From NCBI GenBank assembly GCA_965204875.1, contig OZ242020.1, positions 2,027,729 to 2,091,728 of the forward strand: DNA of 64,000 nucleotides, read 5' to 3'. Under the pieces are notes generated by a model. It did no database searches. It was not told the DNA's origin and saw nothing but the letters and a program-made list of their open reading frames with translations. The position numbers were made by a program, and so were the translations under genes. Shown here piece after piece: positions 10,687 to 48,928 of this stretch. Every line of letters begins with the position of its first letter. Position 1 is the stretch's first letter. This DNA is from Candidatus Aldehydirespirator sp. GTDB taxonomy: Bacteria > Actinomycetota > Acidimicrobiia > Acidimicrobiales > Aldehydirespiratoraceae.

Positions 10687-11145
10687 ATGGCAGCGACCGT
10701 CGAGCCCTTGATCCCGACCGCCGCACGCGCCGCGCGCAAGATGCGCCGCTTCGACGCTCGTGGCACCTATCTTGCCTCCCTCGCGAAGGACTGGGCCTAC
10801 TACGTCGAGCATCGGGAGCGGATGATCTCCGAGCCTCCACGCGGACGTTGGTGGCATCGCTTCACCCGCCACCGCGGAGACCTACCCCGCCTCGCCGCCG
10901 TCGTTCACGGACTCTGCGAACGGGACGGGGTGGAGGTGCCTGCCTGGGTGTGGCAGCATCGCAGCCGCCACGACATCGGCTGGAGCGGGCAACGGGTGAA
11001 CCAGTGGCACATCGAGTTCTGCCAGTCGAGGAATGCGCCGGAGGCTTGCGCCTATCATAGGGTCTGGTTCGATGGGCCTTCTATCGAGGACATCCGCATA
11101 CACGGGTTCACCTGCCTCGCCGTGGAGCTTCCGCTCGCCCTGTGA
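10687..11145 (+). CDS. hypothetical protein (partner of the downstream nucleotidyltransferase-fold gene)
   Basis: 152 aa, ATG start. Its stop overlaps the next start (GTGA at 11142-11145). No motif recognised. Confidence 0.45.
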   Translation: MAATVEPLIPTAARAARKMRRFDARGTYLASLAKDWAYYVEHRERMISEPPRGRWWHRFTRHRGDLPRLAAVVHGLCERDGVEVPAWVWQHRSRHDIGWSGQRVNQWHIEFCQSRNAPEACAYHRVWFDGPSIEDIRIHGFTCLAVELPLAL

Positions 11146-11765: not shown

Positions 11766-12118
11766 CAGGACGCTGCCCGCCGCGAGGCGGCGATCTCCAA
11801 AGCGCTGTCGCAGTTCGGGGCACGGGTGCGGGAGATCGAGCCGCCCCAGCCCGCGGGACGCACACGCCGATGCGGACACAGCGGCTGCCGCAGGCGCGTG
11901 GCGGCTGGGAAGATGTGCCCTGTCCATGAACGCCCGCCGAAGGGGAAGCGGGTATAGCGCAGGGCTACCTGCCGGTGGGTGATGCACGCCCCGGGGATCG
12001 CCTGCCTGTGGTGCTTTGGGGGCTACCGTCATTGCAGGCGATCTCACCGGCCTTCGCCCCTGCGTCGCCCGCGGTGTGAGAACCCGCCGAGGCGCTGGGA
12101 AGAGCCGCCGGCAGGAGC

Positions 12119-33053: not shown

Positions 33054-34079
33054 GTGCCTGTGAAGGTTGACGGGTTGCTGACCGGTTCGATCGGCGATGC
33101 CGCGGCCGGTGCCGCCGACCTTGAGGCGTCCGGGTTCTCGGGTGCCTGGACGCTGGAGGGATCCCACGACCCGTTCCTGCCCCTGGCGGTGGCCGCTGGT
33201 CACACCAGCGAGATCCAGCTCGGGACGGCGATCGCCATCGCGTTCGCTCGCAACCCGATGCTGCTGGCAAACATCGGCTGGGATCTGCAGGCGCATTCGC
33301 GGGGCCGGTTCGTGCTGGGGCTCGGCAGCCAGATCAGGCCCCACATCACCAAGCGCTTCTCCATGGAGTGGAGCAGGCCGGCGGCGCGGATGTGCGAGAT
33401 GGTGCAGGCCACGAGGGCCGTCTGGGACGCCTGGTGCAACGGCACCCGGCTGAGCTTCCGCGGCGACTTCTACCAGCACACCCTGATGACCCCGATGTTC
33501 ACCCCCGATGCGGCCGATCTGGGCGACTTCGGCCCGCCGCCGATCTTCCTGGCCGGTGTGGGCCCGCTGATGACGGAGGTGGCGGGCGAGGTGTGCGACG
33601 GGTTCTTCTGCCACCCCTTCACCACCGAGCGATACCTCCGGCAGGTCACGCTGCCGGCGCTGGAGCGCGGCCGCGCCAGGGCTGGCGCGTCGATGGACGG
33701 TTTCGAGATCGCCGGCCCGTCGTTCGTGGTGACCGGGTGCAACGACGCCGAACTCGAGCGGGCGGCGGCGGCCACCCGCCGGCAGATCGCCTTCTACGGC
33801 TCGACGCCCGCCTACCGGCCGGTCCTGGAGATTCACGGCTGGGGCGACCTGCAGGGCGAGCTGAATGCGCTGTCGAAGCGGGGCGAGTGGGAGGCGATGG
33901 GTGCGCTCGTCGACGACGAGGTGCTCAACACCTTCGCCGTGGTCGGCACGCCCGAGCAGATCGCGCCCGAGCTGGGCCGGCGTTACGGCGACGTGATCAG
34001 CCGCATCTCCTTCCAGGGCCCGAACCGCGGCGACCCCGACCGCTGGCTCGGGGTGATGGAGGCACTCAAGGCTCTCTGA
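33054..34079 (+). CDS. LLM-class F420-dependent oxidoreductase
   Basis: Has LGTAIAIAFARNPMLLA and GLGSQIRPHITKRF. GTG start candidates lie at 33048, 33054 and 33060. Confidence 0.75.
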   Translation: MPVKVDGLLTGSIGDAAAGAADLEASGFSGAWTLEGSHDPFLPLAVAAGHTSEIQLGTAIAIAFARNPMLLANIGWDLQAHSRGRFVLGLGSQIRPHITKRFSMEWSRPAARMCEMVQATRAVWDAWCNGTRLSFRGDFYQHTLMTPMFTPDAADLGDFGPPPIFLAGVGPLMTEVAGEVCDGFFCHPFTTERYLRQVTLPALERGRARAGASMDGFEIAGPSFVVTGCNDAELERAAAATRRQIAFYGSTPAYRPVLEIHGWGDLQGELNALSKRGEWEAMGALVDDEVLNTFAVVGTPEQIAPELGRRYGDVISRISFQGPNRGDPDRWLGVMEALKAL

Positions 34080-34845
34080 GACCGATGGCGGCGAGCACTG
34101 CGCCGTGCAGTTCGGGGCGGCACACAACCAGGTCGGGCAGGTAGGGATCGGGCTGGTTGTAGCGCAGCTCGGTGCCGTCGATCCGGCTGACGGCGCACCC
34201 GGCGGCAGCGGCCACGGCCGTCGGGGCACAGGAGTCCCACTCGTACTGGCCACCGGCGTGGACGTAGATGTCGGCGTCGCCGCGCACGACCGCCATCGCC
34301 TTGGCACCTGCTGAGCCCAGCGACACCAACTCCGCGTCCAGTGCCTCGGCCACGGCGTCAGCGGCGGCCGGGGGCCGGGACCGCGACACCACCAGCCGGG
34401 GCCTGCCGGGACGGGCGGGCGGCAGTCTCGGCGGGTGCAGTGTGGAGAGGGTCAGCCCGAGCGCCGGCAGCGACACAGCCCCGGCGGCGGGGCGCTCATC
34501 AACGGTCAGCGCCACATGCACGGCCCAGTCGCCGCGCCCCGGCTCGGAGAACTCCCGGGTGCCGTCAAGCGGATCGATCACCCAGACCCGCCGCGAGCCG
34601 AGGCGGCGAGGGTCGTCCGCCGCCTCCTCGGAGAGCAGGGCGTCGCCGGGCCGAGTCTCGGCAAGCTGCCGCGACAGCATCTCCTGCGAGCAGCGGTCAC
34701 CCTCGGCTCGCAACACCGCCGGGGGAGCATCCTGGCTCGCCAGCCTGTCCCGCAACTCCACCAGCAGCATCCCGGCCCGCTCCGCAGCCTCCGCGGCGAG
34801 CCTGTGATCATCGAGACCAACCAGCCCAGGTCCTACCTCAGACAC
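34066..34845 (-). CDS. cysQ: 3'(2'),5'-bisphosphate nucleotidase / inositol monophosphatase family
   Basis: 259 aa. Has WVIDPLDGTREF and GSAGAKAMAVVRGDADIYVH. Confidence 0.75.
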   Translation of the reverse strand: MSEVGPGLVGLDDHRLAAEAAERAGMLLVELRDRLASQDAPPAVLRAEGDRCSQEMLSRQLAETRPGDALLSEEAADDPRRLGSRRVWVIDPLDGTREFSEPGRGDWAVHVALTVDERPAAGAVSLPALGLTLSTLHPPRLPPARPGRPRLVVSRSRPPAAADAVAEALDAELVSLGSAGAKAMAVVRGDADIYVHAGGQYEWDSCAPTAVAAAAGCAVSRIDGTELRYNQPDPYLPDLVVCRPELHGAVLAAIGLREP

Positions 34846-34958: not shown

Positions 34959-35414
34959 GTGGGAGCGGACTCGGGGAGCGGGTCGTGGGCCTCGTCGCCG
35001 GCCACGCGCAGGTCGATGCAGGCCAACCGTGGCCGCGACACCAAGCCCGAACTTGCCGTGCGCTCAGCCGTGCATCGTCGCGGCATCCGCTTCCGAGTAT
35101 CGACACGCCCTCAACCGGAGCTTCCCCGCACCGCCGATCTCGTCCTGCGCAAGACCAAGATCGCCGTGTTCGTGGATGGCTGCTACTGGCACGGCTGCCC
35201 CGAGCACCACACCCGGCCCGCCACCAACGCCCAATACTGGACCGACAAGATCGCGGGCAACATGGAACGCGATGTCGAGACCACCGACTACCTGCAACGG
35301 GCCGGGTGGACCGTGCTGCGGTTCTGGGAGCACGAGGACGCCGAATCCGTGGCCGACACCATCGAGCAAGCCGTGCGATCTGCCAAGAAGCGATCTACCC
35401 CATCACCCTCCTGA
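34959..35414 (+). CDS. vsr: very-short-patch repair endonuclease
   Basis: 151 aa from the GTG at 34959. Has RDTKPE, FVDGCYWHGC and VLRFWEHE. Confidence 0.8.
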   Translation: MGADSGSGSWASSPATRRSMQANRGRDTKPELAVRSAVHRRGIRFRVSTRPQPELPRTADLVLRKTKIAVFVDGCYWHGCPEHHTRPATNAQYWTDKIAGNMERDVETTDYLQRAGWTVLRFWEHEDAESVADTIEQAVRSAKKRSTPSPS

Positions 35415-35739
35415 CGTGGGGCAATCGTGGCCGCAGCTATCTCCGTGGGCTCGCGGCGGCCTGATCATCCACCGCAATGTCACATGGCGATGGAACTATG
35501 AGCGGCATGAGCAGATCACTCCACCCGGCCCTGCGCCGAGCGTCGGCGCCGAGCCCGCTTCGCGGGACGCTCGGCCGATCCGCGAGAGAACGTCAGCACC
35601 CCTGGCCTGCCGAATCGACGGATTCGCGCCGCAACCGGGCGTGCGCGGCTAAGCCCCTGCGCGGAGCAGCGAAGAAGCTGCGTCGCCCTAGCGTCCGCCT
35701 CTGCCTATCGGCCGTCGCTCACTTGCGCGGCCTGCTACG

Positions 35740-36411
35740 GTGATCGACGTGCCGCGGCTGTTGGACCTGTTCTGTTGCGCTGGCGGTGCTGCGGAGGGCT
35801 ACCATCGGGTCGGGTTCGAGGTGGTTGGGGTGGACATCGATCCTCAGCCGAACTATCCGTTCGAGTTCATCCAGGCCGACGTTCTTGACCTCGATCCCGA
35901 CTGGCTTCGTTCGTTCGACGTCGTGCATGCGTCGCCCCCCTGCCAAAGCTACTCAGCGCTTGCTGCCCGCACTGGCACCGGCCACTTGTGGGCACGGCTC
36001 ATCGACCCTGTGCGCGAGTTGCTGAGAGCTTCGGGCCGACCCTACGTGATCGAGAATGTGGTCGGCGCACCCTTGCGCGATCCGATCATGTTGTGTGGCA
36101 CGATGTTCGCTGAACTACGAGTGATCCGTCATCGGCTGTTCGAGTCGAATATGCTGCTTGTTGCTCCAGGGCCTTGCAGGCCGCATCCTCTGTGCCACAC
36201 ACTTGACAGGCGCAAACGCCATTACGGGCTTACCAACGAATGGCGCGACTATGTTCAGGTAAATGGCGGGGGCAATAGCAGTGTTGCCGCGGCTCGCGAT
36301 GCTATGGACATCGATTGGATGACAAAGCGCGAACTGAATGAAGCGATCCCTCCTGCCTATACCGAGTACTTGGGAGAACAACTCATAGAATACGCGAAGG
36401 CAGCCGCATGA
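35740..36411 (+). CDS. compact DNA (cytosine-5)-methyltransferase
   Basis: 223 aa. Motif I DLFCCAGG, motif IV SPPCQSYS, motif VI VIENV and a C-terminal LNEAIPPAYTEYLG (motix X-like). There is almost no variable/TRD region. Confidence 0.8.
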   Translation: MIDVPRLLDLFCCAGGAAEGYHRVGFEVVGVDIDPQPNYPFEFIQADVLDLDPDWLRSFDVVHASPPCQSYSALAARTGTGHLWARLIDPVRELLRASGRPYVIENVVGAPLRDPIMLCGTMFAELRVIRHRLFESNMLLVAPGPCRPHPLCHTLDRRKRHYGLTNEWRDYVQVNGGGNSSVAAARDAMDIDWMTKRELNEAIPPAYTEYLGEQLIEYAKAAA

Positions 36412-36980
36412 GCGATCTGAAAGGCCGCAAGGGAATCGCCGCGTATTTTCGTAACCACATTGGTGAGATTGTGACCTCAGATGATCTACGTCAGGCAAGT
36501 GGCAACCAGATGGAGTGGGGTCGAAGAGTCCGTGAATTGCGCCTGGAGTACGGGTATCGGATAGAGACGCATCGTGATTCGCTAGAACTCAAACCTGGCC
36601 AGTATCGGCTTGTCGAGCAGCCACCGGACAAGCCGCCGCCACGGTTCAGTCGCCAAATCTCACAGAAGACTCGAGCGCAAGTGCTCGCACGCAACGGCTC
36701 CACCTGTCAACTCTGTGGCAGAGGAACTGGAGACGACTTCGAGGACGGAGCACGCGTATTGCTGCACGTTGATCACATCCACAACAAGAGCGAAGGCGGC
36801 AGCGACGACCTCGCAAACCTCCGTACTCTTTGCCAGCGATGCAACGAGGGTGCCAAGGATGTCCTGCCACCACCGCCAGACCGACTTTGGTTGATGGGCA
36901 GGATCAGGGCAGCAAGCAACCGGGACCAGAAGGCTGTATACGAATGGCTATGCCAGAAGTTCAAGGCTGACACACCATGA
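36408..36980 (+). CDS. HNH endonuclease (probable restriction partner of the C5-MTase)
   Basis: 190 aa. Has CQLCG....HVDHIHNKSEGGSDDLANLRTLCQRCN. Its ATG overlaps the MTase stop (ATGA). Confidence 0.75.
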   Translation: MSDLKGRKGIAAYFRNHIGEIVTSDDLRQASGNQMEWGRRVRELRLEYGYRIETHRDSLELKPGQYRLVEQPPDKPPPRFSRQISQKTRAQVLARNGSTCQLCGRGTGDDFEDGARVLLHVDHIHNKSEGGSDDLANLRTLCQRCNEGAKDVLPPPPDRLWLMGRIRAASNRDQKAVYEWLCQKFKADTP

Positions 36981-37014: not shown

Positions 37015-38022
37015 CTACTTCGCGCGGCGAACATCTCCTGTCCACAAGTCTGTTGCTGTCTGGGAGGACGTCAGAGCCTCGACCGTTTCCTTCACGTCGC
37101 TGACACGCCGAGCTACTTCTGGCGCATCCGGATATGTCGCGTGGTATGCGTCCGCGACCTTCGGGGAGAACTGTGCGGCGACTTCGATGTACTGCGCGGT
37201 TAGCTCGCACAGAGCTTCGTCGCTAAGGTCATCGGCTTCGATCAGAGCCTCTAGCGTCTCTTCATATGTGCCTGCTTGACGCCAGGCGCTCCCCTGTCGC
37301 AGGAGGCTGTCCGGGAGTTCCGCACATCGATCAGTCAGGCTGGAGTCGATCTCATCGATCAACTCGCTGAGATCATGCGTCCTGATCGGCGGTTTGCCAG
37401 ACATGGCGATCAGTGCCTTGAGACCGTGTTCAACAACCATGACGCTTGAAGCGCAGAGTCTGGCTAACCGGTGCCGGCGAAACCCATCAGCCCTAACGGT
37501 GCTCTGAGATTGACGTACCGACAGTTCGCGCGCGCTGGCCGCATAACTTCTCAGTATATTATCTATCTCATATTCGATGTCGCGAAGTTTCTGCTCGGGC
37601 ACGAGGTGCTCGGAGGCTGGCATTTTTTCGATCAACTCCAGGTTCAACGGATGCTGAGGCTCATCTAGCAATGTAATGATGCTGTCTCGGATACCACGCT
37701 CGAAAGTGTTGCTGATCTGTTCGCTACGATGCTGCCATTTGAGGCGGTCTGTGACTAGCACATCTACACGACGGTCGATACACTCATGTGCGGCCGCTTC
37801 TAGTTGCAGCTTGAGTTGCAGCCGACTCTTCTGGCTGGTGCGAGTGGCGTAATCCAAGTCATCGTATACGGCTACCAGGTCGATGTCGCTGCTCTCGCCG
37901 GCGCTGCCCTCAGCTACCGACCCGAACAGCAGCACAGCCCCCACACCATGCTCCTCCGCGAAGACTCTGGCGACGCGGCGGGCATCCTCCACCGTCGGGA
38001 TCACAGAGACGGTCGCCACCAT
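37015..38022 (-). CDS. fused minimal nucleotidyltransferase (MNT) + HEPN domain protein
   Basis: MNT motif LLFGSVAEGSAGESSDIDLV. HEPN-like C-terminal half has IRTHDLSELI. Trimmed to the ATG at 38022. Confidence 0.6.
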   Translation of the reverse strand: MVATVSVIPTVEDARRVARVFAEEHGVGAVLLFGSVAEGSAGESSDIDLVAVYDDLDYATRTSQKSRLQLKLQLEAAAHECIDRRVDVLVTDRLKWQHRSEQISNTFERGIRDSIITLLDEPQHPLNLELIEKMPASEHLVPEQKLRDIEYEIDNILRSYAASARELSVRQSQSTVRADGFRRHRLARLCASSVMVVEHGLKALIAMSGKPPIRTHDLSELIDEIDSSLTDRCAELPDSLLRQGSAWRQAGTYEETLEALIEADDLSDEALCELTAQYIEVAAQFSPKVADAYHATYPDAPEVARRVSDVKETVEALTSSQTATDLWTGDVRRAK

Positions 38023-38166
38023 GCCCGCCAGGCTATCGCGGCCGTTTGTGCGCCAGCGAGCGCATCGGCTAGCCGGAGTGCGACTCACGGTGTCGGCGGG
38101 GCCTCCGGAGGTCCCGCCTCGCCAGGGAGTTCCGTGCGTTCAAGGGGCTGATACTCGCCTACCCTC

Positions 38167-38591: not shown

Positions 38592-41500
38592 GTGGCTACC
38601 GATCGAAAGGTTTCATCCGTGCTATATCAAGAATTATCGGAACTCATTCAAATCGGTGACTTAAGCCAACTGTTTGTCGTAAGGATGGGCTGGGACAATC
38701 CGGTTCAGGCTGAGCCGGTCGAAGTGTCCGATAGTGCGCTGCGTCCTGTGGCTGTCGCTGACAAGAAGGGTGTTACCGCTTGGCGGGTGGACTGCCCAGG
38801 CTTGCCGCAGCGTTCCGAGCAGCATCGGGTGGTGCGGGAGCTCAAGCGCCGTAGCCGTGATCAGCTGGTCGTGTTCGTAGCCCCGGACACGCACCTGTGG
38901 CTGTGGCCCGAGCAGCGTTCGAGCGGCGTCGGGTACCGGTTGGTCGATTACGAGTACCCGGCGCAGGCACCGACCGAGGCGCTGTTGCAGCGCCTCAAGC
39001 AGGCATCGTTCAAGATCGAAGAAGAGAACCAGCTGACATCTAGCTCGGTATTGGACAGAGTCCGCCGCTCGTTCAACGCCGACAAGGTAACCAAGTCCTT
39101 CTACCGTGAGTTCCAGAAGCACCACAAGGACTTCTCGAGGATGGTGGAGGGAATCCCCGTAGACAAGAGCCGCCGTTGGTATGTGTCGGTGCTGCTCAAC
39201 CGGCTCATGTTCATGTACTTCATCCAGCAGAAGGGCTTCCTGAACGGCGATCAGAACTACCTTCGCAAGTGTCTGGGCAGGGTTCGAGAGCGCTACGGTG
39301 CCGACCAATTCTATGCGTTCTATCGTGAGTTCTTGCTTCCGCTATGTCATGAAGGTCTGGGACGCCCCTCGGGTCAGCGCAATATAGACCCTGTGATCGA
39401 GCAGATCATCGGCAACGTGCCGTACGTGAACGGCGGAATCTTCGAGCAGCATACTCTGGAGATCAAGCACGATATACAGATCAGAGACGACGCGTTTGAG
39501 ACTCTGTTCGACTTCTTCGATAGCTGGCGCTGGCACCTGGATGAGAACCGGACCGGTGCTGCGAATGAAATCAACCCTGACATCCTCGGATTCATCTTCG
39601 AGAAGTACATCAACTTCACAGATCGTGGCCAGAGAGAAACGGGCGCGTACTACACGAAGCCCGACGTGACCGGCTATATGGCGACCTTCACCATACTGCC
39701 CGCCCTCGCGGATCGGTTCGTCTCGGCTGGGCTGGACGATCCGTGCTTGCTGCTCTCAGGCTCAGACGATGACTACATTCACGACAGCGTGCTCCACGGC
39801 GTAGAGCCGATTTCTGCGGGGGGGGGGAAGGCTGATCAGCCTCCGCCATCGGACGAGCTGGCGCTGCCAGGAGAGCGCTGGTGTGACATCACCCATCGCC
39901 GGGAGCGGTGCGCGCGACTGCGGAGCCTGCTGTCGGACGGCTCACGCGAGTGGACGATCGACGACTGCATTACCGAGAACCTTGACATCCGGGAGCTGCT
40001 GGCCGACTACCTGGTGCAACTGTCCAGTGCCGAGGAGTGCGATCAAGCCTTCAAGGTTCTGAGATCGCTGACCGTATGTGATCCCACGGTCGGATCAGGA
40101 GCGTTCCTGTTCGCTGCTCTCGAAGTGCTGGAGCCACTGTACGAAGTGGTGTTGTCGCGCGCTGCGGAGTTGCATGACAGGCAAGGCGATACTGAACTTG
40201 CGGACTGTCTGAGGGAGAGTCGCAGGCATCCAAATCCGAGTTACTGGATGCTGAAGACCCTGTGCCTCAACAACCTCTATGGCATCGATCTCATGGACGA
40301 GGCGCCTGAGATTTCCAAGTTGCGCCTGTTCCTGAAGCTCGCCGCACAGTTGGACGATGTGAACCAGTTGGAACCCCTGCCTGATCTTGACTTCAATATC
40401 AAGTCAGGCAACCTCTTGGTAGGCATTGCCGACAGGCAGGACGCTGAGCGAAGGCTTGGTGCGGGCCAACTTGATCTTGGTGGAGAAATCAAGCAGATCG
40501 GCGAGTTAGCAGAGCGAGTTGGAATCATATATGACGACTTTGTGCGAGCTCAATCTAAGGACATCGGGAACAGCGACCACGCGGTAGCCAAGCAGAGGTT
40601 GAACGCTGAACTCATGACGGCGCGCCATTCGGCAGATGATCTGCTCTACAGGAAGCGGCACGAGCGTGGTGACTTCGAGTATTGGCGTGATTCACACCGA
40701 CCATTTCACTGGTTTGTGGAGTTTCCAAGCGTGTGGCGACACGACGGCTTTGATATAGTAATCGGCAACCCACCGTATATTCAGACGAATAAGGTAAGAG
40801 AATATAGGCGGATAGGCTATAAGACTCAGAATTGTCCTGACCTCTATGCAGTTTGCGTTGAGCGAGCGTCGAACTTGGTCAACGAAAGGGGTCGAGCATC
40901 CATGATCGTAATGCACAATCTGTGCTTCAGTCACCAGTATACTCGTCTTCGTAATCACCTTTCAAGTCTCTTTTCTTCCTTGCACGTATCATCCTACGAT
41001 AGATTACCCAGTGGGCTATTCAGTGACTCCGCTGCTGTTCGCAGTTCCATATTCTTGGCTACCAAGTATCAACACATGGCAAATCTCGCTGTTGATATTG
41101 CACAGGACGAACGCAGATGTGCAGTTGTCGTGCCATATGTGTCCTCAGTTCATCGCTGGCATACGAATTCTCGTTCGTGGCTGTTTGATTCTGTGACGTA
41201 TGTTGGTCCTCAACGATCGCTCGTTACGCTCAACGGCAACGACGTCTGGCCCTTTGTTGGCTCTGAAGCCATATCGGGTGCTCTTGGTAATGTGGCGTTA
41301 GGAAAACCAATATCTGATGTAACGTCTAGGAACGGTCGCTACTCGCTGGCCTACAAGAAGACGGGACTATATATGTTAGGTATATCCGTGGAACCTCCTC
41401 CCACACTGGGTGGCACGACGGCAAACTACGGATACTTGCGTTTTTCGGAATCGATTTGTCGCGACTTGGCCCTGCTGATGCTGGCTGGCCGCTGGGGGTA

Positions 41501-41843
41501 TGTTTGGTGGCTAATCTACTCGGATTGGTTTCATGTGACGAGTGGCGTAGTCAAGAGCTTTCCGGGCGATATTGCGCGAATCGTCGTCGAAGCGGAACAT
41601 GAAGCGTCTGATTTGAGGCTTGGTGCCCTACAGTCGCTAGCTCACGGACTTGCAGAAGAGATGACAGACCATCTGGCATGGACATGGAAACTTGGTCTTA
41701 AGGTCGGTCGATACAAGATGCATGAGCTTAGACACATTACTGACGAGGCTGATCTGCTGCTGGCTCAGGCTTGGGGAATCGAGGATGCTTATGAGGCGGC
41801 GGGGAACTTTCGTGATCGCATGATCTTCGGAACCAAAGAGTAG
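38592..41843 (+). CDS. large gamma-class N6-adenine DNA methyltransferase (Eco57I/MmeI/PglX-like), no nuclease motif seen
   Basis: 1083 aa. Has DKVTKSFYREFQ, LLNRLMFMYFIQQKGFL, motif I VCDPTVGSGAFL (about 40074-40109) and motif IV NPPY (40767-40778). The C-terminal third is AT-rich and TRD-like. Confidence 0.85.
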   Translation: MATDRKVSSVLYQELSELIQIGDLSQLFVVRMGWDNPVQAEPVEVSDSALRPVAVADKKGVTAWRVDCPGLPQRSEQHRVVRELKRRSRDQLVVFVAPDTHLWLWPEQRSSGVGYRLVDYEYPAQAPTEALLQRLKQASFKIEEENQLTSSSVLDRVRRSFNADKVTKSFYREFQKHHKDFSRMVEGIPVDKSRRWYVSVLLNRLMFMYFIQQKGFLNGDQNYLRKCLGRVRERYGADQFYAFYREFLLPLCHEGLGRPSGQRNIDPVIEQIIGNVPYVNGGIFEQHTLEIKHDIQIRDDAFETLFDFFDSWRWHLDENRTGAANEINPDILGFIFEKYINFTDRGQRETGAYYTKPDVTGYMATFTILPALADRFVSAGLDDPCLLLSGSDDDYIHDSVLHGVEPISAGGGKADQPPPSDELALPGERWCDITHRRERCARLRSLLSDGSREWTIDDCITENLDIRELLADYLVQLSSAEECDQAFKVLRSLTVCDPTVGSGAFLFAALEVLEPLYEVVLSRAAELHDRQGDTELADCLRESRRHPNPSYWMLKTLCLNNLYGIDLMDEAPEISKLRLFLKLAAQLDDVNQLEPLPDLDFNIKSGNLLVGIADRQDAERRLGAGQLDLGGEIKQIGELAERVGIIYDDFVRAQSKDIGNSDHAVAKQRLNAELMTARHSADDLLYRKRHERGDFEYWRDSHRPFHWFVEFPSVWRHDGFDIVIGNPPYIQTNKVREYRRIGYKTQNCPDLYAVCVERASNLVNERGRASMIVMHNLCFSHQYTRLRNHLSSLFSSLHVSSYDRLPSGLFSDSAAVRSSIFLATKYQHMANLAVDIAQDERRCAVVVPYVSSVHRWHTNSRSWLFDSVTYVGPQRSLVTLNGNDVWPFVGSEAISGALGNVALGKPISDVTSRNGRYSLAYKKTGLYMLGISVEPPPTLGGTTANYGYLRFSESICRDLALLMLAGRWGYVWWLIYSDWFHVTSGVVKSFPGDIARIVVEAEHEASDLRLGALQSLAHGLAEEMTDHLAWTWKLGLKVGRYKMHELRHITDEADLLLAQAWGIEDAYEAAGNFRDRMIFGTKE
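39818..39827. repeat. homopolymeric G10 tract, in frame, inside the methyltransferase gene
   Basis: Counted directly: ...ttctgc gggggggggg aaggct.... It encodes AGGGK. Confidence 0.9.
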
Positions 41844-41848
41844 TCACC

Positions 41849-44800
41849 ATGCCGAAGATACTTGACAACATCGATCTTCAGACCGAGGCTGAACTGCTTG
41901 ATACTTTGAGGTCGTCCTATCGTCTGGACGCGGCTATCGGCTACTTTAACCTTCGTGGCTGGTCGCTGCTGGCTGAAGCGGTGGAGGCCATGCCTGATTG
42001 TCCAGGTGAGCCGAAGTGTCGGCTGCTGGTCGGCATCCATGAGGCGCCTACAGCAGAGATGCGTCGCTCGGCCCGGATGCGTCCTCCTGAGCAGACGGAT
42101 AACAAGACCGCGGCGCGCCTGAGGACCGAGACGGTTTCCGAGTATCGGGACCAGTTGCAGGTTGGGTTGCCCACTGCGGGCGACGAGAAGTCGCTCCGCA
42201 CTCTGTTGCGCCAGATCGAAGCCGGCGAAGTCGAGGTTCGTGTCCATACGGCTCATCGCCTGCATGCCAAGCTTTACATCTGTCACCGTGACGATTCCGC
42301 AGCACCTCGGGTCGGGTATGTGGGCTCGTCCAACCTGACGGCGGCAGGGCTCCGTGAGCAGGGCGAACTCAATGTGGATGTGGTGGACACCGACGCATCG
42401 GGCAAGCTGGCTCGCTGGTTCGAGGATCGCTGGAACGACCCGTTCACGGTCGATGTGATGCCAGAGTTGGCCGAGGCCCTTCGCGAGTCGTGGGTGCGCG
42501 AGGATCAGCTCGATCCCTACCTCGTGTACCTGAAGATGGCCTACCACCTATCCAGGGAGGCACGCGAGGGACTCATCGAGTACGGCCTGCCTGCCTCGAT
42601 GCGGGACAAGCTGCTGGACTTCCAGGCAGCCGCAGTGCAGATCGCGGCCCGCATCGTCATGCAGAAGGGCGGCGCCATGATCGGCGACGTAGTGGGACTC
42701 GGCAAGACGCTTGTGGCAACCGCCATTGCGCGGTTACTCCAAGAAGAGCAGGGCTTCGAGACACTGGTGGTATGTCCGAAGAACCTCACCGAGATGTGGA
42801 AGTCATACCTTCACGAGCATGAGGTGCGCGGCACGGTCGAGTCGCTGTCGATGGTACACAAGAACCTGCCCAATGCTCGCCGGTACCGGCTGGTCATCAT
42901 CGACGAGGCACACAACCTCCGCAGCCACGAGCGCCGTGATCACAAAGTCATCCAGGAGTACATCGCTGATAACGACTCCAGGACGCTGCTGCTGACGGCC
43001 ACGCCCTACAACAAGCAGCTGGACGACCTAAGAGCGCAGCTGGCGCTGTTCATCCCAGCAGACAAGGACCTGGGCGTTCGACCGGAGCGAGCCATCGCTG
43101 CCATGGGCGCCGCGTACTTCGAGTCGAAATGCGATGGGCTGACCTCCACGCTGAGCGCGTTCAAGCACTCCGACTCCCTTGAGGATTGGCAGCAACTGAT
43201 GTCGCAGTACTTGGTGCGCCGCACCCGACGTTTCGTCGAGGACAACTACGCCCAAACTGACGAGGACGGTCGCCGCTACCTGCAGTTCGGCACTGGCAAG
43301 CCCTTCTACTTCCCGAAGCGTCAGCCCAGTCCTGTTGAGCGGGATATGTCACCAGATGATCCGGCCTTGCCGATGGCGTCTGACGCAACGCTCGACTCGA
43401 TTCGCGATCTGCGTCTGCCGCGATACCGCCGGGGCGACTACCTCGACGCGGACTTCATTCCATCGAGTTCGCAAGAGCAGCGGTTGCTGGAGGATCTGAA
43501 GAGGTCCAACAAGGGAAACCTGGGGGGTGTCACCAGGATCACACTGTTCAAGCGGTTGTCGTCGTCAGGCCCAGCCTTCATCAAGACGTTGAACCGCCAT
43601 CGCCTGCGTGACCTGATTGCGGCACACGCGCTCGGCAACGGGTTGGATGTGCCCATCGGACCGCTCGATGAGGCGCTTTGGGATGACCAGTATGACGGAG
43701 ACCCCGAAGACAGCGGCGAAGACGGCAACACGGCACAGTTCCTAAACGCTGAAGAGGATACCGCGGCAGCCGCCTACGGCAGGCTTCGCGCCAAGAGTCC
43801 CAAGCCAGTTCGCTGGGCACCGGCTGCGATGTTCAGAGACGATCTCAAGGAGGACCTATATCACGATGCGGAGGTGATCGCCGAGATGCTGGAGCGCTTC
43901 GGGACCTGGGACCGAGAGCGTGACGGCAAGATCGGAGCACTCGAGAGCCTGCTCACTTTTCACCACCCTGACGACAAGGTTCTCATCTTCACCGAGGCGG
44001 CCGACACGGCCCACTACGTCCACGAAGAACTGCTGCGACGGGGCGTCGACGCGGTCGGCGTGGTCACCGGCGACTCCGAGAACCCGACTTTGCTGGCGCA
44101 GCGGTTCTCGCCGCGGTCCAACATCGTCGCCGCTGGCGAATCGGGCGCAGAAGGCGAACTGCGGGTGCTGGTGTCAACGGACGTGCTCTCCGAGGGCCAG
44201 AACCTCCAGGATGCTCATATCGTCGTCAACTACGACCTCCCGTGGGCCATCGTCAAGCTGGTCCAGCGCGCCGGACGAGTCGACAGGATCGGCCAGCAAT
44301 CGCCCGAGGTGCTGCTCTACTCGCTGATGCCTGCCGAACCCGTCGAGGCCGAGATCGATCTGCGCGGGCGCATCCGCAGGCGCTTGGGCGAGAACGCGCG
44401 GCTTCTCGGCTCGGATGAGGAGTTCTTCGGCGACCCGTCAGAGCGCCAGAAGATCAGCGGCGTCTACGACGAGACCTCCGCTTTCGGGCTGCGAGAGCAA
44501 GACATAGACGACGTCGATCCGGTGTCGATGGCCTACGAGATCTGGCGGCACGCCAAAGAGGACCACCCCGAACTTGCGAAGCGAGTCGAATCGTTGCCCA
44601 ACGTCGTCTACTCGACCAAGCACGCAGGCAAGGAGGCGCCCGATGTGGGCGTTCTGGTTCACACGCAGACGGCCGCAGGCCCGGGTGTCAATGTTCCTGG
44701 CTCGCATCGTGACACCAGATCAGGCGAGCACCTGTCTGCGATCGACGCCTTCGCGTTCGTGGAACCCGGCGGTGAGGCTCGCCGCGTCACGCCGCAGGAG

Positions 44801-45223
44801 GCGCTGCGACTCGCGGAGTGCAAGCCGTCGACACCCGCGGCGCCACGCCTGGCTGACCACCACGATCTGACCGCAACCGCGCTCGGAGGGCCGTTGCGGA
44901 TCTCGTCGGGTACTGCAACCACAGCGCTACAAGGCGTCCGAGGCAGGGTCTGGCAGAAGCTCCACGACCATATGGACACCTTGACCGACAACATCCTGTT
45001 CACCAAGTCGGATCTCGGTGCCGCCCACGATGCCATGAACGAGCGCCCCCTCTACGAGCAGGCAACCCAGCTACTGGCCCGAGCCATGCGAGAACGAAGC
45101 ACTGAAGACCTCGCAGTTCTCGTAGTGGAACTCCACAGAGACAACCGGCTGTGCGTGCCGCCCACGACCGACGGAACTCACAACGAACCCGTCATCGTCT
45201 GCACGATGGGCATCACAAGCTAG
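41849..45223 (+). CDS. PLD (HKD) nuclease domain fused to an SNF2-family helicase
   Basis: 1124 aa. One HKD motif (HAKLYI at 42263-, with GSSNLT). SNF2 motif I GLGKT (42695-42709) and motif II DEAH (42902-42913). Helicase-C: STDVLSEGQNLQ...QRAGRVDRIGQ. Starts 5 nt after the MTase stop. Confidence 0.85.
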   Translation: MPKILDNIDLQTEAELLDTLRSSYRLDAAIGYFNLRGWSLLAEAVEAMPDCPGEPKCRLLVGIHEAPTAEMRRSARMRPPEQTDNKTAARLRTETVSEYRDQLQVGLPTAGDEKSLRTLLRQIEAGEVEVRVHTAHRLHAKLYICHRDDSAAPRVGYVGSSNLTAAGLREQGELNVDVVDTDASGKLARWFEDRWNDPFTVDVMPELAEALRESWVREDQLDPYLVYLKMAYHLSREAREGLIEYGLPASMRDKLLDFQAAAVQIAARIVMQKGGAMIGDVVGLGKTLVATAIARLLQEEQGFETLVVCPKNLTEMWKSYLHEHEVRGTVESLSMVHKNLPNARRYRLVIIDEAHNLRSHERRDHKVIQEYIADNDSRTLLLTATPYNKQLDDLRAQLALFIPADKDLGVRPERAIAAMGAAYFESKCDGLTSTLSAFKHSDSLEDWQQLMSQYLVRRTRRFVEDNYAQTDEDGRRYLQFGTGKPFYFPKRQPSPVERDMSPDDPALPMASDATLDSIRDLRLPRYRRGDYLDADFIPSSSQEQRLLEDLKRSNKGNLGGVTRITLFKRLSSSGPAFIKTLNRHRLRDLIAAHALGNGLDVPIGPLDEALWDDQYDGDPEDSGEDGNTAQFLNAEEDTAAAAYGRLRAKSPKPVRWAPAAMFRDDLKEDLYHDAEVIAEMLERFGTWDRERDGKIGALESLLTFHHPDDKVLIFTEAADTAHYVHEELLRRGVDAVGVVTGDSENPTLLAQRFSPRSNIVAAGESGAEGELRVLVSTDVLSEGQNLQDAHIVVNYDLPWAIVKLVQRAGRVDRIGQQSPEVLLYSLMPAEPVEAEIDLRGRIRRRLGENARLLGSDEEFFGDPSERQKISGVYDETSAFGLREQDIDDVDPVSMAYEIWRHAKEDHPELAKRVESLPNVVYSTKHAGKEAPDVGVLVHTQTAAGPGVNVPGSHRDTRSGEHLSAIDAFAFVEPGGEARRVTPQEALRLAECKPSTPAAPRLADHHDLTATALGGPLRISSGTATTALQGVRGRVWQKLHDHMDTLTDNILFTKSDLGAAHDAMNERPLYEQATQLLARAMRERSTEDLAVLVVELHRDNRLCVPPTTDGTHNEPVIVCTMGITS

Positions 45224-45316
45224 ACGGCCTGCCGGCCGGGGTCACCGAGACGGTGGCCGCCCGCCCGCGAGTGTCGTTGCTCGGCTGCGCGCCCGCGAAC
45301 TGCATCGCGGACGCGG

Positions 45317-48300
45317 TCAGGGCAGGACTGCTTGCTGTAGGAGTTCTTGCTGCTCTTGGGCGTGCACGCGGGCGCTGCCGCTTGCGGGGCTGCCCGACTC
45401 GGGACGGCTCAGCCGGCGGATCCGGTGCGTGCCGGAATGCGCCTCGAACAGGCGGCCCTTCACCCCGTTCCATGCACCCATGTTCTCGGGCTCCTCCTGC
45501 ATCCAGACGATCTCACTGGCGTTGCGGTAGCGCCGCAACTCATGTTCCACGGCCGCGAAGGGCCACGGGAACAGCTGCTCCACCCGGCAGATCGCCACCG
45601 GCGAGCCGTGCTCGTTGCGCAACTCCATGGCGTCGTAGGCGACCTTGCCGCTGCAGAGGATCACCCGAGTCACCGGATCCGGGTCGACTCTCCCGGCCTC
45701 GACGTCGACATCGCCCAGAACCTCCTCGAAAGTGCCCGATATCAGCTCGGTCACCTGCGAGCGGGCCGTACGCCTGCGCAGCAGCGACTTGGGGGTGAAC
45801 ACGATCAGCGGCTTGCGCTGGTGCAGGATCATCTGGCGGCGCAACAGATGAAAGAACTGCGCGGCGGTGGTCGGCTGGCAGACCTGGATGTTGTCCTCGG
45901 CGGCAAGGGTGAGGAACCGCTCGATCCGCGCCGACGAGTGCTCGGGCCCCTGCCCCTCCATCCCGTGCGGCAACAGCAACACCAGGCCGCAGCGCTGCTG
46001 CCACTTGTCCTCCGCAGCGACGATGAACTGATCGATGATGATCTGGGCGCCGTTGGCGAAATCGCCGAACTGTGCCTCCCACAGCACCAGCGCCTCAGGC
46101 TTGGCGACGGCATAGCCGTATTCGAAGCCCAGCGCCGCGTACTCCGAGAGTATCGAGTCGTATATCCACAGGTTGCTGTCCTGCGTGCACAGCGCGCTGA
46201 GCGGGACGTACTGCTCGTTGGTGACGTAATCCACCAGCGTCGAGTGGCGGTGCGAGAAGGTTCCCCGGCCGCTGTCCTGGCCGCTGAGCCGCACCGAGGT
46301 GCCCTCCATCAGCAGCGAGCCGAAGGCCATCGCCTCGCCCAGACCCCAGTCGATCTCGCCGGAGCGGAACATCCGGTCGCGCTGCTCGAACTGCTTAGCC
46401 AGCTTGGGATGCACCGTGAACCCCGCAGGCACCGTGTTGAGCGCCCGGTAGACGCGCTCCACCGTGACCGAGTCCACGGCCGTGCGAACATGCGGCAGGA
46501 CGCCGATCGGCGCCGGCGGCGGCTTGGCCCTGATGTGGTCGCCGCCGGCGGCGTCCCGGGTCTCGTCGAGGGCGGCCTGCAGCTGCGCCCGGTACTCCCC
46601 GAGCGACTCGTCGGCCTCGGCAGCGGTGAGGTCGCCGCGCTTCATCAGCGCCTCGATGTACTGCTGGCGCACGGTCGGCTTGGCGTCGATGCGCCGGTAC
46701 ATCTCCGGCAGCGTGTAGCTGGGGTCGTCGCCCTCGTTGTGGCCGTGGCGCCGGTAGCAGATCATGTCGATCACGGCGTCCTTGTTGAACCGCTGGCGGT
46801 AGGCGAAGGCCAGGCGAGCCACCCGCACGCAGGCCTCCGGGTCGTCGCCGTTCACATGGAAGATCGGCGCGCCGACCATCTTGGCCACATCGGTGGAGTA
46901 CTGGGTGGAGCGGGCCGAGTCGGGGGTGGTGGTGAACCCGAGCTGGTTGTTGATCACCACATGGATCGTGCCGCCGACGCGGTAGCCCTTGATGAGTCCC
47001 AGGTTGAACGTCTCGGCCACCACGCCCTGGCCCGCGAAGGCGGCGTCGCCGTGCACCAGCACGGGCAGCACCGGATAGGGGCCGTAGCCGCCCTCGGGGG
47101 GGATGTTGTCCATGCGGGCGCGGGCCATGCCCACCACCACCGGATCGACCGCCTCCAGGTGCGACGGGTTGGCGGCGAGCTCCACGAGCAGGTTGCGACC
47201 CGACGGGCTCTGATAGGAGGCGATCTGGCCGAGGTGGTACTTGACGTCGCCGCTGCCCTGGATCTGATCCTCGGTGATGGCGCCCTCGAACTCCTTGAAC
47301 AGCTGCTGGTACGTCTTGTCCAGCAGGTTGACCAGGACGTTGAGGCGGCCCCGGTGGGCCATGCCCATGACCACCTCCGCCAGGGGCTCGTCGGCCGCCG
47401 CGGTGAGCAGCGAGTCCAGCAGCGGCATGGCCGACTCCGCGCCCTCGAGGCCGAAGCGCTTCTGGCCGACGTACTTGGTGCCGAGAAACGTGGAGAGGGC
47501 CTCCGCGGCATTGAGCATGGTCAGGATGCGGCGCTGGTCCTCGTGCTTGAGCTCGGTTTCGGCGCCCTCGATCTGCTCCTGCATCCAGCGCTTCTCCTCG
47601 GGCTCCTGGATGTGCATGTACTCCACGCCCACGGTGCGGCAGTAGGCGTCGCGCAGCACGCCCAGCAGGTCGCCCAGGGTCATGCGTGCAGCACCGCCGA
47701 CGGTGGCGTAGATGCCGGTGGAGCTGCCGGTGAGGAACTGGCGGTCGAGGTCCCAGATGGTCAGCCCGTAGGTCGCCGGGTCGAGCTCGGCGTGCATCAC
47801 GGGGGCCTCGTCGCGCAGCGGGTCGAGGTCGGCGATCAGGTGGCCGCGCACCCGGTACTGGTTGATCAGCTGGTTGACCTTTGCCTGCTTGTCGAGCATG
47901 GCCGCCTCGCGGTCGACCGGGTTGAAGTCGCGCCGCCACTTCACGGCCTCATAGGGGATGTGCAGCGAGCGGAACACCTTGTTGTAGAAGTCGTCGGCTC
48001 CGAGCAGCAGGTCGTGTACCTGCCGCAGGAAGAGGCCCGACTCGGCGCCCTGGATCACCCGGTGGTCGTAGGTGCTGGTGATGGTGACGAGCTTGCTCAC
48101 GCCGAGGTCGGCGAGCAGGGAGGGGTCGGCGGCCTCGTACTCGGTGGGGAACGCCAGCGCGCCCACGCCCACGATGGTGCCCTGCCCGAGCATCAGGCGC
48201 GGCACCGACTGGCGGGTGCCGATGGTGCCCGGGTTGGTGACCGTGACCGTGACGCCGCGCAGGTCATCGGCAGTCACACGGTTGTCGCGCACCTTGGCGA

Positions 48301-48928
48301 CCTGCTCCTCGTAGCGCTCCATGAAGGCCGCGAAGTCGAGCGTGTCGGCGTCGTGGATGCAGGGCACCATCAGCGTGCGGGTACCGTCGAGCCGGGGGAG
48401 GTCCACGGCGAGGCCCAGGCCGATGTGCTCGGGCCGCACCAGGCGGGGCCGCCCGTCGGCGTCGGTCGCATAGGTGCTGTTCATGAACGGCACGGCGTCG
48501 GCTATGGACCGCACGACGGCGTAGCCGATGAGGTGGGTGAACGACACCTTGCCGCCCAGCTTGCGGCTCAGGTGGCCGTTGATGATCTTGCGGTTGACCT
48601 CGAGCAGCTTGGCCGGGATGTCACGGAAGCTCGTGGCGGTCGGCACGGCCAGGCTGGCCTCCATGTTGGCCACGATGCGGGCGCCGACGCCGCGGATCGG
48701 CTCGCCGCCGGGCGTGTGGTCCGCGGCCGGGTCGGGCGCGGGCGCAGATGTCCGGCTCGGCGACGTCGGCGGGGTGGTGCGCTCGCCGCCCTCGAACAGA
48801 GCGCGCCAGTCGGCGTCCACCGAGGCCGGATCGTCCAGCCAGCGGTCCCGCATCTCGTCGATGATCCAGGCGTTGGCGCCGAGGGCGTCCCGACGCTCAG
48901 CGAGGCTCTGCCCATCCATCGGGTCCAA
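45317..48928 (-). CDS. kgd: multifunctional 2-oxoglutarate decarboxylase/dehydrogenase E1 with N-terminal E2-like acyltransferase domain
   Basis: 1203 aa. Acyltransferase catalytic motif YDHRVIQGAESG precedes a long TPP-dependent E1 body. This is the actinobacterial Kgd architecture. Confidence 0.9.
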   Translation of the reverse strand: MDPMDGQSLAERRDALGANAWIIDEMRDRWLDDPASVDADWRALFEGGERTTPPTSPSRTSAPAPDPAADHTPGGEPIRGVGARIVANMEASLAVPTATSFRDIPAKLLEVNRKIINGHLSRKLGGKVSFTHLIGYAVVRSIADAVPFMNSTYATDADGRPRLVRPEHIGLGLAVDLPRLDGTRTLMVPCIHDADTLDFAAFMERYEEQVAKVRDNRVTADDLRGVTVTVTNPGTIGTRQSVPRLMLGQGTIVGVGALAFPTEYEAADPSLLADLGVSKLVTITSTYDHRVIQGAESGLFLRQVHDLLLGADDFYNKVFRSLHIPYEAVKWRRDFNPVDREAAMLDKQAKVNQLINQYRVRGHLIADLDPLRDEAPVMHAELDPATYGLTIWDLDRQFLTGSSTGIYATVGGAARMTLGDLLGVLRDAYCRTVGVEYMHIQEPEEKRWMQEQIEGAETELKHEDQRRILTMLNAAEALSTFLGTKYVGQKRFGLEGAESAMPLLDSLLTAAADEPLAEVVMGMAHRGRLNVLVNLLDKTYQQLFKEFEGAITEDQIQGSGDVKYHLGQIASYQSPSGRNLLVELAANPSHLEAVDPVVVGMARARMDNIPPEGGYGPYPVLPVLVHGDAAFAGQGVVAETFNLGLIKGYRVGGTIHVVINNQLGFTTTPDSARSTQYSTDVAKMVGAPIFHVNGDDPEACVRVARLAFAYRQRFNKDAVIDMICYRRHGHNEGDDPSYTLPEMYRRIDAKPTVRQQYIEALMKRGDLTAAEADESLGEYRAQLQAALDETRDAAGGDHIRAKPPPAPIGVLPHVRTAVDSVTVERVYRALNTVPAGFTVHPKLAKQFEQRDRMFRSGEIDWGLGEAMAFGSLLMEGTSVRLSGQDSGRGTFSHRHSTLVDYVTNEQYVPLSALCTQDSNLWIYDSILSEYAALGFEYGYAVAKPEALVLWEAQFGDFANGAQIIIDQFIVAAEDKWQQRCGLVLLLPHGMEGQGPEHSSARIERFLTLAAEDNIQVCQPTTAAQFFHLLRRQMILHQRKPLIVFTPKSLLRRRTARSQVTELISGTFEEVLGDVDVEAGRVDPDPVTRVILCSGKVAYDAMELRNEHGSPVAICRVEQLFPWPFAAVEHELRRYRNASEIVWMQEEPENMGAWNGVKGRLFEAHSGTHRIRRLSRPESGSPASGSARVHAQEQQELLQQAVLP

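Follow-up and report, generated by a model that had tools for sequence, protein, structure and literature searches.

A widespread pair of methyltransferase and PLD-SNF2 genes as a candidate split, ATP-dependent restriction-modification system

In a 64,000-nt stretch of the genome of Candidatus Aldehydirespirator sp. (Acidimicrobiia; contig OZ242020.1, positions 2,027,729 to 2,091,728; hereafter, the window), a gene for a large N6-adenine methyltransferase (MTase; gene 1) is followed by a gene for a phospholipase D (PLD) nuclease domain fused to an SNF2-type motor (gene 2), which raises the question of what the two proteins do together. A first-pass annotation of the window, made from the sequence alone, had described the pair as an ATP-dependent restriction-modification (R-M) module in a low-G+C island, with a list of parts that fits no described class. 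The conserved pair, its domains and the island stood up to our analysis, but the architecture is less unprecedented than was claimed: gene 1 already falls under a Type IIG profile label (PDLC03628), and there are published precedents for nuclease domains with the HKD motif fused to SNF2 and for PLD nucleases working with ATPases. We found no paper that names the two-gene pair, which appears to be an unnamed form of ATP-dependent R-M, widespread and mislabelled by current tools, with a mechanism that we infer from its parts.

Both open reading frames (ORFs) are intact, co-directional and 5 nt apart, as first described, and all motifs that had been quoted for them were found at the coordinates given. 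Gene 1 contains VCDPTVGSGAFL (residues 495-506) and NPPY (residues 726-729), and also DKVTKSFYREFQ and LLNRLMFMYFIQQKGFL, both of which lie in its helical spacer domain; gene 2 contains HAKLYI (H139/K141), GSSNLT (159-164), GLGKT (283-287), DEAH and QRAGRVDRIGQ (806-816). Searches with profile hidden Markov models (HMMs) confirmed Eco57I/N6_Mtase in gene 1 and PLDc_2/SNF2/Helicase_C in gene 2. The start of gene 1 has two candidates, GTG 38592 and GTG 38619, the latter with GAAAGG 8 nt upstream, and the public gene call (P0121, 1052 aa) begins at M32; conservation within the family reaches upstream of M32, to approximately residue 8 (L19, F22, D23, L27, F28), and either GTG appears more likely than M32 to be the start. 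Ahead of gene 2, AAAGAG overlaps the end of gene 1, and translational coupling of the two genes is possible.

Relatives were sought in a collection with one genome per species, and 80 loci were fetched for analysis of gene neighbourhoods. At least 588 species genomes, from about 20 phyla, encode a full-length relative of gene 2 (41-75% identical across residues 1-1122); among the phyla are Actinomycetota, Chloroflexota, Cyanobacteriota, Planctomycetota, Acidobacteriota, Verrucomicrobiota, Pseudomonadota, Bacillota, Bacteroidota and Spirochaetota. A homologue of gene 1 detected by tblastn adjoins the gene 2 relative, in the same direction, in 73 of the 80 loci, and a family HMM, by recovering the characteristic N-terminal domain, added another four (L029, L033, L037 and L068), bringing the loci with a member of the gene 1 family beside gene 2 to 77 of 80; among these four, L033 and L068 stop at a contig edge, one is a fragment and L029 is divergent. 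Homologues of the two genes are thus neighbours across phyla, a check that the first-pass annotation had proposed. The divergence of gene 2 is tracked by the N-terminal, helical and MTase domains of gene 1 (Spearman rho 0.48-0.78); the C-terminal ~250 residues are uncoupled from it (rho 0.03-0.16). At least 80% of gene 2 was also found on 24 plasmid records, from hosts that include Rhodococcus, Microbacterium, Gordonia, Nostoc, Anabaena and Synechocystis PCC 6803 (pSYSX). Gene 1 and gene 2 are, in our judgement, a real, conserved functional pair.

The layout of the pair varies. Both gene orders occur among the 80 loci, with the MTase gene first in close Acidimicrobiia relatives and in two loci of the Ktedonobacter group (Chloroflexota; L023 and L055) and the PLD-SNF2 gene first elsewhere. 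Clustering of the flanking ORFs of the 80 loci revealed no other broadly conserved neighbour save a gene for a DprA/Smf-like protein (~213 aa, DNA_processg_A 2e-14), which lies downstream of the MTase gene and in the same direction in 27 of the loci (within L013-L078) and may be an optional third component. Small toxin-antitoxin cassettes of AbrB/VapB-like and PIN/VapC genes have been inserted between the two genes of the pair in loci that are not related to one another (L016, L027, L035, L043, L048, L050 and L065). The window contains neither the DprA-like gene nor a VapBC insertion. In L029, the partner protein (11411-14902, 1163 aa) keeps the N-terminal domain and the motif I region and is otherwise divergent, with a sub-threshold Pfam match. 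Two insertions, one of ~1.0 and one of ~1.6 kb, disrupt the MTase gene of L005 (2091-7989).

In Pfam, gene 2 matches PLDc_2 (1e-09, in one stretch, residues 116-195), SNF2-rel_dom (2.6e-14) and Helicase_C (4.1e-17), and its PLD domain passes the cut-off of RE_NgoFVII (PF09565; 6.2e-07, 29.3 vs. 23.8 bits). The chain carries only one HxK...GSSN motif; all 81 sequences compared keep its H139, G159, S160, S161 and N162, and 80 of them keep K141; G283, G285 and K286 of GLGKT, D352/E353 of DEAH and motif VI of the motor are likewise found in all 81. The single HKD motif and SNF2 motor that had been read from this gene are thus confirmed, with catalytic residues that are invariant or nearly so. The conserved C-terminal region of gene 2 has no match in Pfam or PADLOC, nuclease families and modified-base readers included; its AlphaFold2 (AF2) model is of moderate confidence (76.7 in pLDDT, the predicted score of the local distance difference test), and Foldseek found nothing significant in PDB, the top match, to RapA (E=0.25), being only a hint. 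Sequence and profile searches of PDB with gene 2 returned generic SNF2 and DEAD proteins only. The best PADLOC match, 'C3a139 HKD+Snf2', represents a type III CRISPR-associated accessory cluster and not a defined system (Shah et al. 2018, PMC6546367).

The Pfam matches of gene 1 are Eco57I (9.5e-25), MmeI_Mtase (1.3e-06) and N6_Mtase, and no other; motif I precedes NPPY and the recognition region is C-terminal, which is the gamma order. Residues D497, P498, G501, G503 and F505 (DPxGSGxF) and the NPP of the catalytic motif are kept in 55 of 55 family members, in which position 729 is Y in 51 and W in 4 and position 499 is T in 48 and A in 7. The C-terminal region differs sharply from the rest of the protein, with an all-pairs identity of 0.18 vs. 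0.39-0.57 for the other domains; it has no match in Pfam or PADLOC and lies within the stretch of lowest G+C in the island (0.52-0.53 over 40-42 kb). Hypervariability of this kind is what one would expect of an R-M specificity domain that undergoes swapping or rapid evolution, and suggests that this region serves as one.

Published work on a model cyanobacterium bears on the pair. Plasmid pSYSX of Synechocystis carries a true homologous pair, in the order PLD-SNF2 (WP_011153866, pSYSX 43696-47151), small hypothetical protein, VapC-family toxin and MTase (WP_011153869), which differs from the pair in the window by its reversed gene order and the inserted VapBC-like cassette. WP_011153869, annotated as 'DNA methyltransferase', corresponds to slr6050, judging by where it lies on pSYSX and by its length of 1100 aa. 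Its identity to gene 1 is 35% over residues 23-1065, N-terminal domain included, and that of WP_011153866 to gene 2 is 41.7% over residues 1-1122; both proteins retain every motif, and slr6050 contains no long simple repeat. Hagemann et al. (2018, PMC6105098) assigned slr6050 as M.Ssp6803IV, the probable source of the N6-methyladenine (m6A) motif GAm6AGGC, and treated it as an 'orphan' MTase, with no mention of the adjacent helicase-nuclease; its deletion would not segregate, and the authors termed the gene essential. The complement of GAAGGC, GCCTTC, is without adenine, so that only one strand can be marked. An MTase gene that cannot be deleted beside an intact nuclease would fit an active R-M pair.

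We consider it fairly probable that the pair is a split ATP-dependent R-M system that follows the logic of Type III and is built from different parts. The variable C-terminal domain of gene 1 would read a short, probably asymmetric DNA sequence, at which the gamma-class core would methylate adenine and thereby mark host DNA, and gene 2 would supply an SNF2 motor that moves along DNA by ATP together with half of a PLD/HKD active site. The conserved N-terminal domain of gene 1 would recruit the PLD-SNF2 protein, an unmethylated site would trigger translocation, and cleavage would need two PLD domains to pair when two complexes meet. That the N-terminal domain docks the partner is a guess, suggested because the domain is family-specific and diverges in step with gene 2. 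Where a PLD nuclease has one HKD motif per chain, it acts as a dimer (Nuc, BfiI), and marking of a single strand calls for a rule by which hemimethylated daughter DNA is spared; cleavage on meeting would protect hemimethylated host DNA after replication, and collision-dependent cleavage would thus satisfy both constraints, the dimerisation of HKD half-sites and the sparing of hemimethylated DNA. Dimerisation on collision, an idea already put forward in the first-pass annotation, is plausible, and the role of such a system may be phage defence.

The likeness to Type III systems (Mod and Res, e.g., EcoP15I) lies in the combination of a specificity-bearing MTase gene with a helicase-nuclease fusion gene, in modification that is probably confined to one strand of an asymmetric site (GAm6AGGC in the homologue) and in a mod-type gene that carries phase-variable repeats. 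The parts themselves are unlike: gene 1 encodes a 1083-aa gamma-class enzyme resembling Eco57I and PglX, whereas Type III Mod is beta-class (N6_N4_Mtase), and gene 2 has an SNF2-type motor with an N-terminal PLD/HKD nuclease, whereas the nuclease of Res is C-terminal and of the PD-(D/E)xK type. As MTase class, motor and nuclease all differ, we rejected membership in Type III.

Simple repeats were enriched in the METHYLTRANSFERASE gene of the pair family, a feature newly seen here. Frame-shifting repeats numbered 13 in the MTase genes (209 kb), 1 in the partner genes (272 kb) and 10 in the flanking sequence (881 kb; Poisson P=2e-7 for the enrichment in MTase genes). Gene 1 itself has a G10 tract at a linker position, around residues 408-413, that also holds repeats in L001 ((CGAC)x27), L004 (G17) and L012 (C15), and repeats at other positions of the MTase gene were found in L010 ((AG)17), L009 (G13), L017 (C11), L045 (C17), L053 (C15) and L070 (C15). 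The MTase genes of several relatives are split into two reading frames, with repeats exactly at the break points in L003 (G9), L006 (G17) and L007 ((TG)15), and at least five frameshifts between high-scoring segment pairs lie at or beside repeats (L003, L006, L007, L017 and L053). Only two homopolymers of at least 8 nt are present in the 64-kb window, both within R-M genes. The repeats suggest phase variation of the MTase genes, and the G10 tract may turn the MTase, along with the entire system, on and off. If cells with an intact nuclease can tolerate an OFF state of the MTase, restriction probably depends on the MTase, as in Type I and Type III. In loci in which the MTase gene comes first, as in the window, early termination of translation in that gene, to which gene 2 may be coupled across the 5-nt gap, could also lower expression of the nuclease.

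Several points weigh against the reading of the pair as a phase-variable R-M system. The G10 tract on its own is only weakly unexpected, with 0.41 runs of G or of C at least 10 nt long expected per window, and many of the ON and OFF calls come from chromosome-level metagenome-assembled genomes (MAGs; OZ and CBD accessions), assumed to be long-read assemblies, in which homopolymer lengths are error-prone. The contigs of L007, L009 and L010 bear SPAdes-style names, suggesting short-read assembly, and we favour contingency loci because different repeat types recur at one position and such short-read-like examples exist. The textbook HxK(x)4D motif has an aspartate that the family does not conserve: the residue is H146 in gene 2 and F, H or Y among family members. 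Neither the N-terminal domain of gene 1 nor the C-terminal one of gene 2 matched a fold, which leaves docking a guess. We found no paper that tests a member of the pair for restriction or phage defence, and the analogous YeeA/DnmA-YeeB-YeeC genes of B. subtilis gave no restriction in transformation assays (PMC7261158). The assignment of slr6050 to its motif rests on elimination and REBASE, and the authors drew no link from its essentiality to the neighbouring helicase-nuclease (PMC6105098). Finally, if restriction strictly needs the MTase, an undeletable slr6050 calls for an extra explanation, for which polyploidy with gradual loss of methylation might serve.

An alternative that we hold to be unlikely is that the pair is a stripped-down relative of DISARM, BREX or ARMADA that blocks phage by means other than site-directed cleavage, such as interference with replication or attack on DNA ends, with methylation as no more than a self mark. 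Gene 2 does match DrmD, BrxHI/HII and DpdE, and gene 1 DrmMI and PglX; the closest solved relatives of gene 1 in sequence and profile searches of PDB are BREX PglX/BrxX, for the catalytic core only, and pairs of an SNF2 gene with a PglX-like gene recur in class 1 DISARM, BREX type 3 and ARMADA. Class 1 DISARM shares all three activities, an SNF2 helicase (DrmD), a PglX-like m6A MTase (DrmMI) and a PLD nuclease (DrmC), but its PLD protein is separate, whereas in the pair PLD is fused to the SNF2 protein. The scores fall far under curated cut-offs: gene 2 reaches 135.8 bits with the DrmD model NF038317 (cut-off 610), and gene 1 reaches 20-73 bits with the PglX NCBIfam models (cut-offs 400-900; at best 73 vs. 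900). The match of gene 1 to DrmMI in PADLOC is partial (5.7e-22), and the PLD domain of gene 2 has no match to DrmC models at E<=0.001. As the first-pass annotation had implied for DrmA/DrmB and PglZ/BrxC, the companion genes are lacking: none of DrmA/DrmB, PglZ, BrxC and DUF499 lies in the island, and neither these nor a YprA-like gene is present in the window or conserved among the neighbours in the 80 loci. We thus rejected DISARM, for want of its core DrmA (helicase) and DrmB (DUF1998), and BREX, for want of the PglZ phosphatase and BrxC ATPase in the island and in related loci. The invariant nuclease site fused to the motor favours cleavage.

The architecture of gene 2 is shared with the Type-2 BR/Hma-like systems, in which an HKD endoDNase joined to the N-terminal side of a Swi2/Snf2 helicase serves as effector, accompanied by an N6 MTase in a scheme like that of R-M (PMC12839542); fusions of HKD to SWI2/SNF2 in bacterial R-M contexts have also been noted by Aravind and colleagues (PMC3417536), and the PbeA effector has HKD joined to an SF2 helicase. 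Unlike the pair, the BR/Hma-like systems need a DUF499 AAA+ ATPase and DUF3780 (PMC12839542), and their MTase, described as COG1743 (PMC7641849), is a different one. Gene 2 matches HmaA in the helicase C-domain only (4e-21), and we rejected Type-2 BR/Hma, as no DUF499, DUF3780 or large ATPase is a conserved neighbour in the window or the 80 loci.

We rate as improbable that the pair is mainly an epigenetic switch (a phasevarion), in which the PLD-SNF2 protein has a role in repair or remodelling or is a decaying remnant. The enrichment of simple repeats in MTase genes and the frameshifted MTase genes of several relatives would agree with such a switch, as would B. subtilis DnmA (YeeA), which affects promoter activity without restriction (PMC7261158). 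Against it, the PLD-SNF2 genes are intact, with invariant catalytic residues, even beside frameshifted MTase genes; the recognition region diversifies as in R-M systems; the pair occurs in defence islands and on plasmids; and slr6050 could not be deleted (PMC6105098). Type III systems combine phase variation with restriction.

The B. subtilis genes are alike in that a large single-chain MTase with a recognition domain, its nuclease lost or replaced, is invariably flanked by a helicase gene (PMC2731913, PMC7261158), and Morgan et al. (2009, PMC2731913) proposed a Type I-like organisation with single-strand modification for MmeI-like MTases of this kind, devoid of a nuclease and with helicase genes alongside. 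They are unlike in the MTase family, as gene 1 matches MmeI_Mtase only at 1.3e-06 and MmeI is missing from its matches in the PDB sequence search, and in the number of genes: YeeC is a third component, proposed to be a GIY-YIG nuclease (PMC2731913), whereas the pair has two genes, with PLD fused to SNF2.

That gene 1 is a self-contained Type IIG enzyme with a cryptic N-terminal nuclease, gene 2 being an accessory or back-up effector, is quite improbable. It is what automated tools would probably report, since gene 1 matches the PADLOC profile PDLC03628 (REase_MTase_IIG) at 1.1e-174 over residues 23-834, a match that takes in the N-terminal domain (3.3e-14 for the domain alone); the Type IIG label of this profile derives from putative REBASE entries and not from assayed activity. 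Charged N-terminal residues are conserved (K58 and E/D90, and D97 in most members), and the conserved residues of the domain as a whole are W34, A56, K58, G60, P72, E/D90, W103 and W105. No PD-(D/E)xK triad, however, is conserved across the family alignment, in which position 57 varies between E, Q, H and D. Residues 1-167 have no match in Pfam, and the AF2 model of the domain (pLDDT 91.9; predicted topology alpha-alpha-beta-beta-alpha-beta-beta-beta) has no Foldseek match in PDB at E<=0.001 (TM<0.3). A match to Hjc (E=0.29) was not significant. The observation that gene 1 contains no nuclease motif was upheld in this way by conservation, Pfam, the AF2 model and Foldseek, and a recognisable nuclease appears to be absent; we therefore rejected membership in Type IIG, since a profile match was found but not the nuclease and MTase on one chain. 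At E<=0.001, the N-terminal domain had 282 matches in a 50%-identity library (1.84 billion representatives); almost all of the 150 that were listed carry it at the extreme N-terminus, and the full-length proteins among these 150 have about 1000-1280 aa, the shorter ones resembling fragments. This family is almost always paired with a PLD-SNF2 gene, and MmeI-family homologues without a nuclease motif had no endonuclease activity (PMC2731913).

Restriction by a PLD-family nuclease working with an SF2 ATPase also has counterparts in CglI/NgoAVII and SauUSI; the RE_NgoFVII match of the gene 2 PLD domain is a feature in common with CglI/NgoAVII. In CglI/NgoAVII, the PLD nuclease and the SF2 ATPase are separate proteins, the nuclease bears a B3-like DNA reader and the MTase is a C5 methyltransferase; SauUSI is not known to have a cognate MTase and targets modified DNA. 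The pair is unlike CglI/NgoAVII in having PLD and ATPase on one chain and an m6A MTase as partner, and unlike SauUSI-like Type IV enzymes in having a linked MTase in 77 of 80 loci and no known reader found by Pfam or PADLOC in the C-terminus of gene 2. SauUSI, a PLD-helicase fusion, is cited in PMC12839542 for HKD endoDNases in ATP-dependent R-M. That the two genes are independent, gene 2 being a SauUSI-like Type IV enzyme against modified foreign DNA and gene 1 an orphan MTase, is highly improbable in spite of the resemblance of the PLD-helicase fusion to SauUSI and a weak match of the PLD domain to a Type IV model (PDLC03659, 1.2e-4), given adjacency in 77 of 80 loci across phyla, co-divergence and a gene 2 C-terminus in which Pfam and PADLOC found no modified-base reader and for which Foldseek gave nothing significant.

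If the pair is the split R-M system that we favour, current tools mislabel a common system, calling its MTase Type IIG and its partner a 'helicase-related protein', although it would represent an R-M architecture of its own that spans ~20 phyla and is carried by plasmids of cultured bacteria (Rhodococcus, Microbacterium, Nostoc and Synechocystis). Such a system would offer a testable explanation for the undeletable slr6050 in a model cyanobacterium and a natural experiment in how a half-site PLD nuclease couples to an SNF2 translocase. Phase variation of R-M genes through repeats, familiar above all from host-adapted pathogens, would extend to environmental lineages; several of the source MAGs come from groups that we take to be sponge-associated (Ca. 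Poriferisodalis, Poribacteria). The hypervariable recognition domain is a possible source of new methylation or cleavage specificities. That the pair constitutes a distinct, phylum-spanning class, defined by an MTase that provides specificity and self-marking, recruitment through the N-terminal domain, HKD half-sites that cut on collision and repeat-driven switching, is a tentative proposal towards which we lean slightly less than away from it; such a class would also explain the essential 'orphan' M.Ssp6803IV in Synechocystis.

Table 1. Coordinates of the gene pair, its domains and motifs, neighbouring features of the window and accessory genes at related loci (window positions unless a locus is given; res, residues).
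Feature	Position	Strand	Description
Gene 1	38592..41843	+	GTG start, 1083 aa; gamma-class N6-adenine MTase, Eco57I/PglX-like, Mod-like subunit
Gene 1 N-terminal domain	38592..39086	+	res 1-165; family-specific; conservation, AF2
Gene 1 helical spacer domain	39087..40031	+	res 166-480; most conserved part of gene 1
Gene 1 G10 homopolymer	39818..39827	+	codons A409-G412, in frame (ON); candidate phase-variation tract
Gene 1 MTase catalytic core	40032..41081	+	res 481-830; Pfam, conservation
Gene 1 motif I DPTVGSGAF	40080-40106	+	catalytic core
Gene 1 NPPY	40767-40778	+	res 726-729
Gene 1 C-terminal region	41082..41840	+	res 831-1083; presumed target-recognition domain, hypervariable
Gene 2	41849..45223	+	ATG start, 1124 aa; HKD(PLD) nuclease fused to SNF2 translocase, Res-like subunit
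Gene 2 single PLD/HKD nuclease domain	41849..42493	+	res 1-215; PLDc_2, RE_NgoFVII
Gene 2 H139-x-K141	42263-42271	+	PLD site
Gene 2 GSSN	42323-42334	+	PLD site
Gene 2 SNF2-type ATPase/translocase	42566..44398	+	res 240-850; Pfam, conserved motifs
Gene 2 GLGKT	42695-42709	+	SNF2 motif
Gene 2 DEAH	42902-42913	+	SNF2 motif
Gene 2 TATP		+	SNF2 motif; res 383-386
Gene 2 QRAGRVDRIGQ	44264-44296	+	SNF2 motif
Gene 2 conserved C-terminal region	44399..45220	+	res 851-1124; all-pairs identity 0.51
CysQ-like gene	34066-34845	-	left island border; reading of translation
Vsr endonuclease	about 35001-35414	+	library scans
Compact C5 cytosine methyltransferase	35740-36411	+	223 aa; library scans
HNH endonuclease	36408-36980	+	overlaps C5 methyltransferase gene; library scans
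MNT-HEPN fusion	37015..38088	-	Polbeta, NTP_transf_2, HEPN; PADLOC PDC-S09; divergent, directly upstream of gene 1
2-oxoglutarate dehydrogenase E1 gene	45317-48928	-	right island border; reading of translation
Type ISP-like gene	1090-6262	+	Mrr-type nuclease, ResIII/Helicase_C motor, N6 MTase
G19 tract	5452-5470		interrupts Type ISP-like gene
DprA-like gene, L037	16691-17332		example
DprA-like gene, L041	14714-15349		example
DprA-like gene, L078	14652-15263		example
VapBC-like cassette, pSYSX (L081)	10487-11120		between the pair genes

The low-G+C island that had been reported around the pair was confirmed by the G+C profile, which drops to 0.52-0.62 between ~36 and 44 kb compared to about 0.70 elsewhere, and the island, which spans about 35.0 to 45.3 kb, contains other defence genes. 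The Vsr endonuclease, C5 methyltransferase and HNH endonuclease genes resemble a small Type II-like R-M unit that brings along a repair nuclease of its own; this unit (35001..36980) and the MNT-HEPN gene are context of the island and lie outside the pair. As for signs of mobility, there is no tRNA in the window and there are no convincing direct or inverted repeats flanking the island. Promoter and terminator scans remained at background level.

Near the start of the window, the Type ISP-like gene has PADLOC matches to REase_MTase_IIG (1.7e-88) and REase_MTase_I (1.2e-50). Its ORF 1090-5712 overlaps, in another frame, the ORF 5480-6262, which is probably its recognition domain. With its G19 tract, and in another patch of low G+C, it appears to be a second R-M gene that is phase-variable or frameshifted. 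Adjoining it is a gene on the minus strand for a HipA-like kinase toxin (6540-7796; HipA_C 5.6e-48, Couple_hipA).

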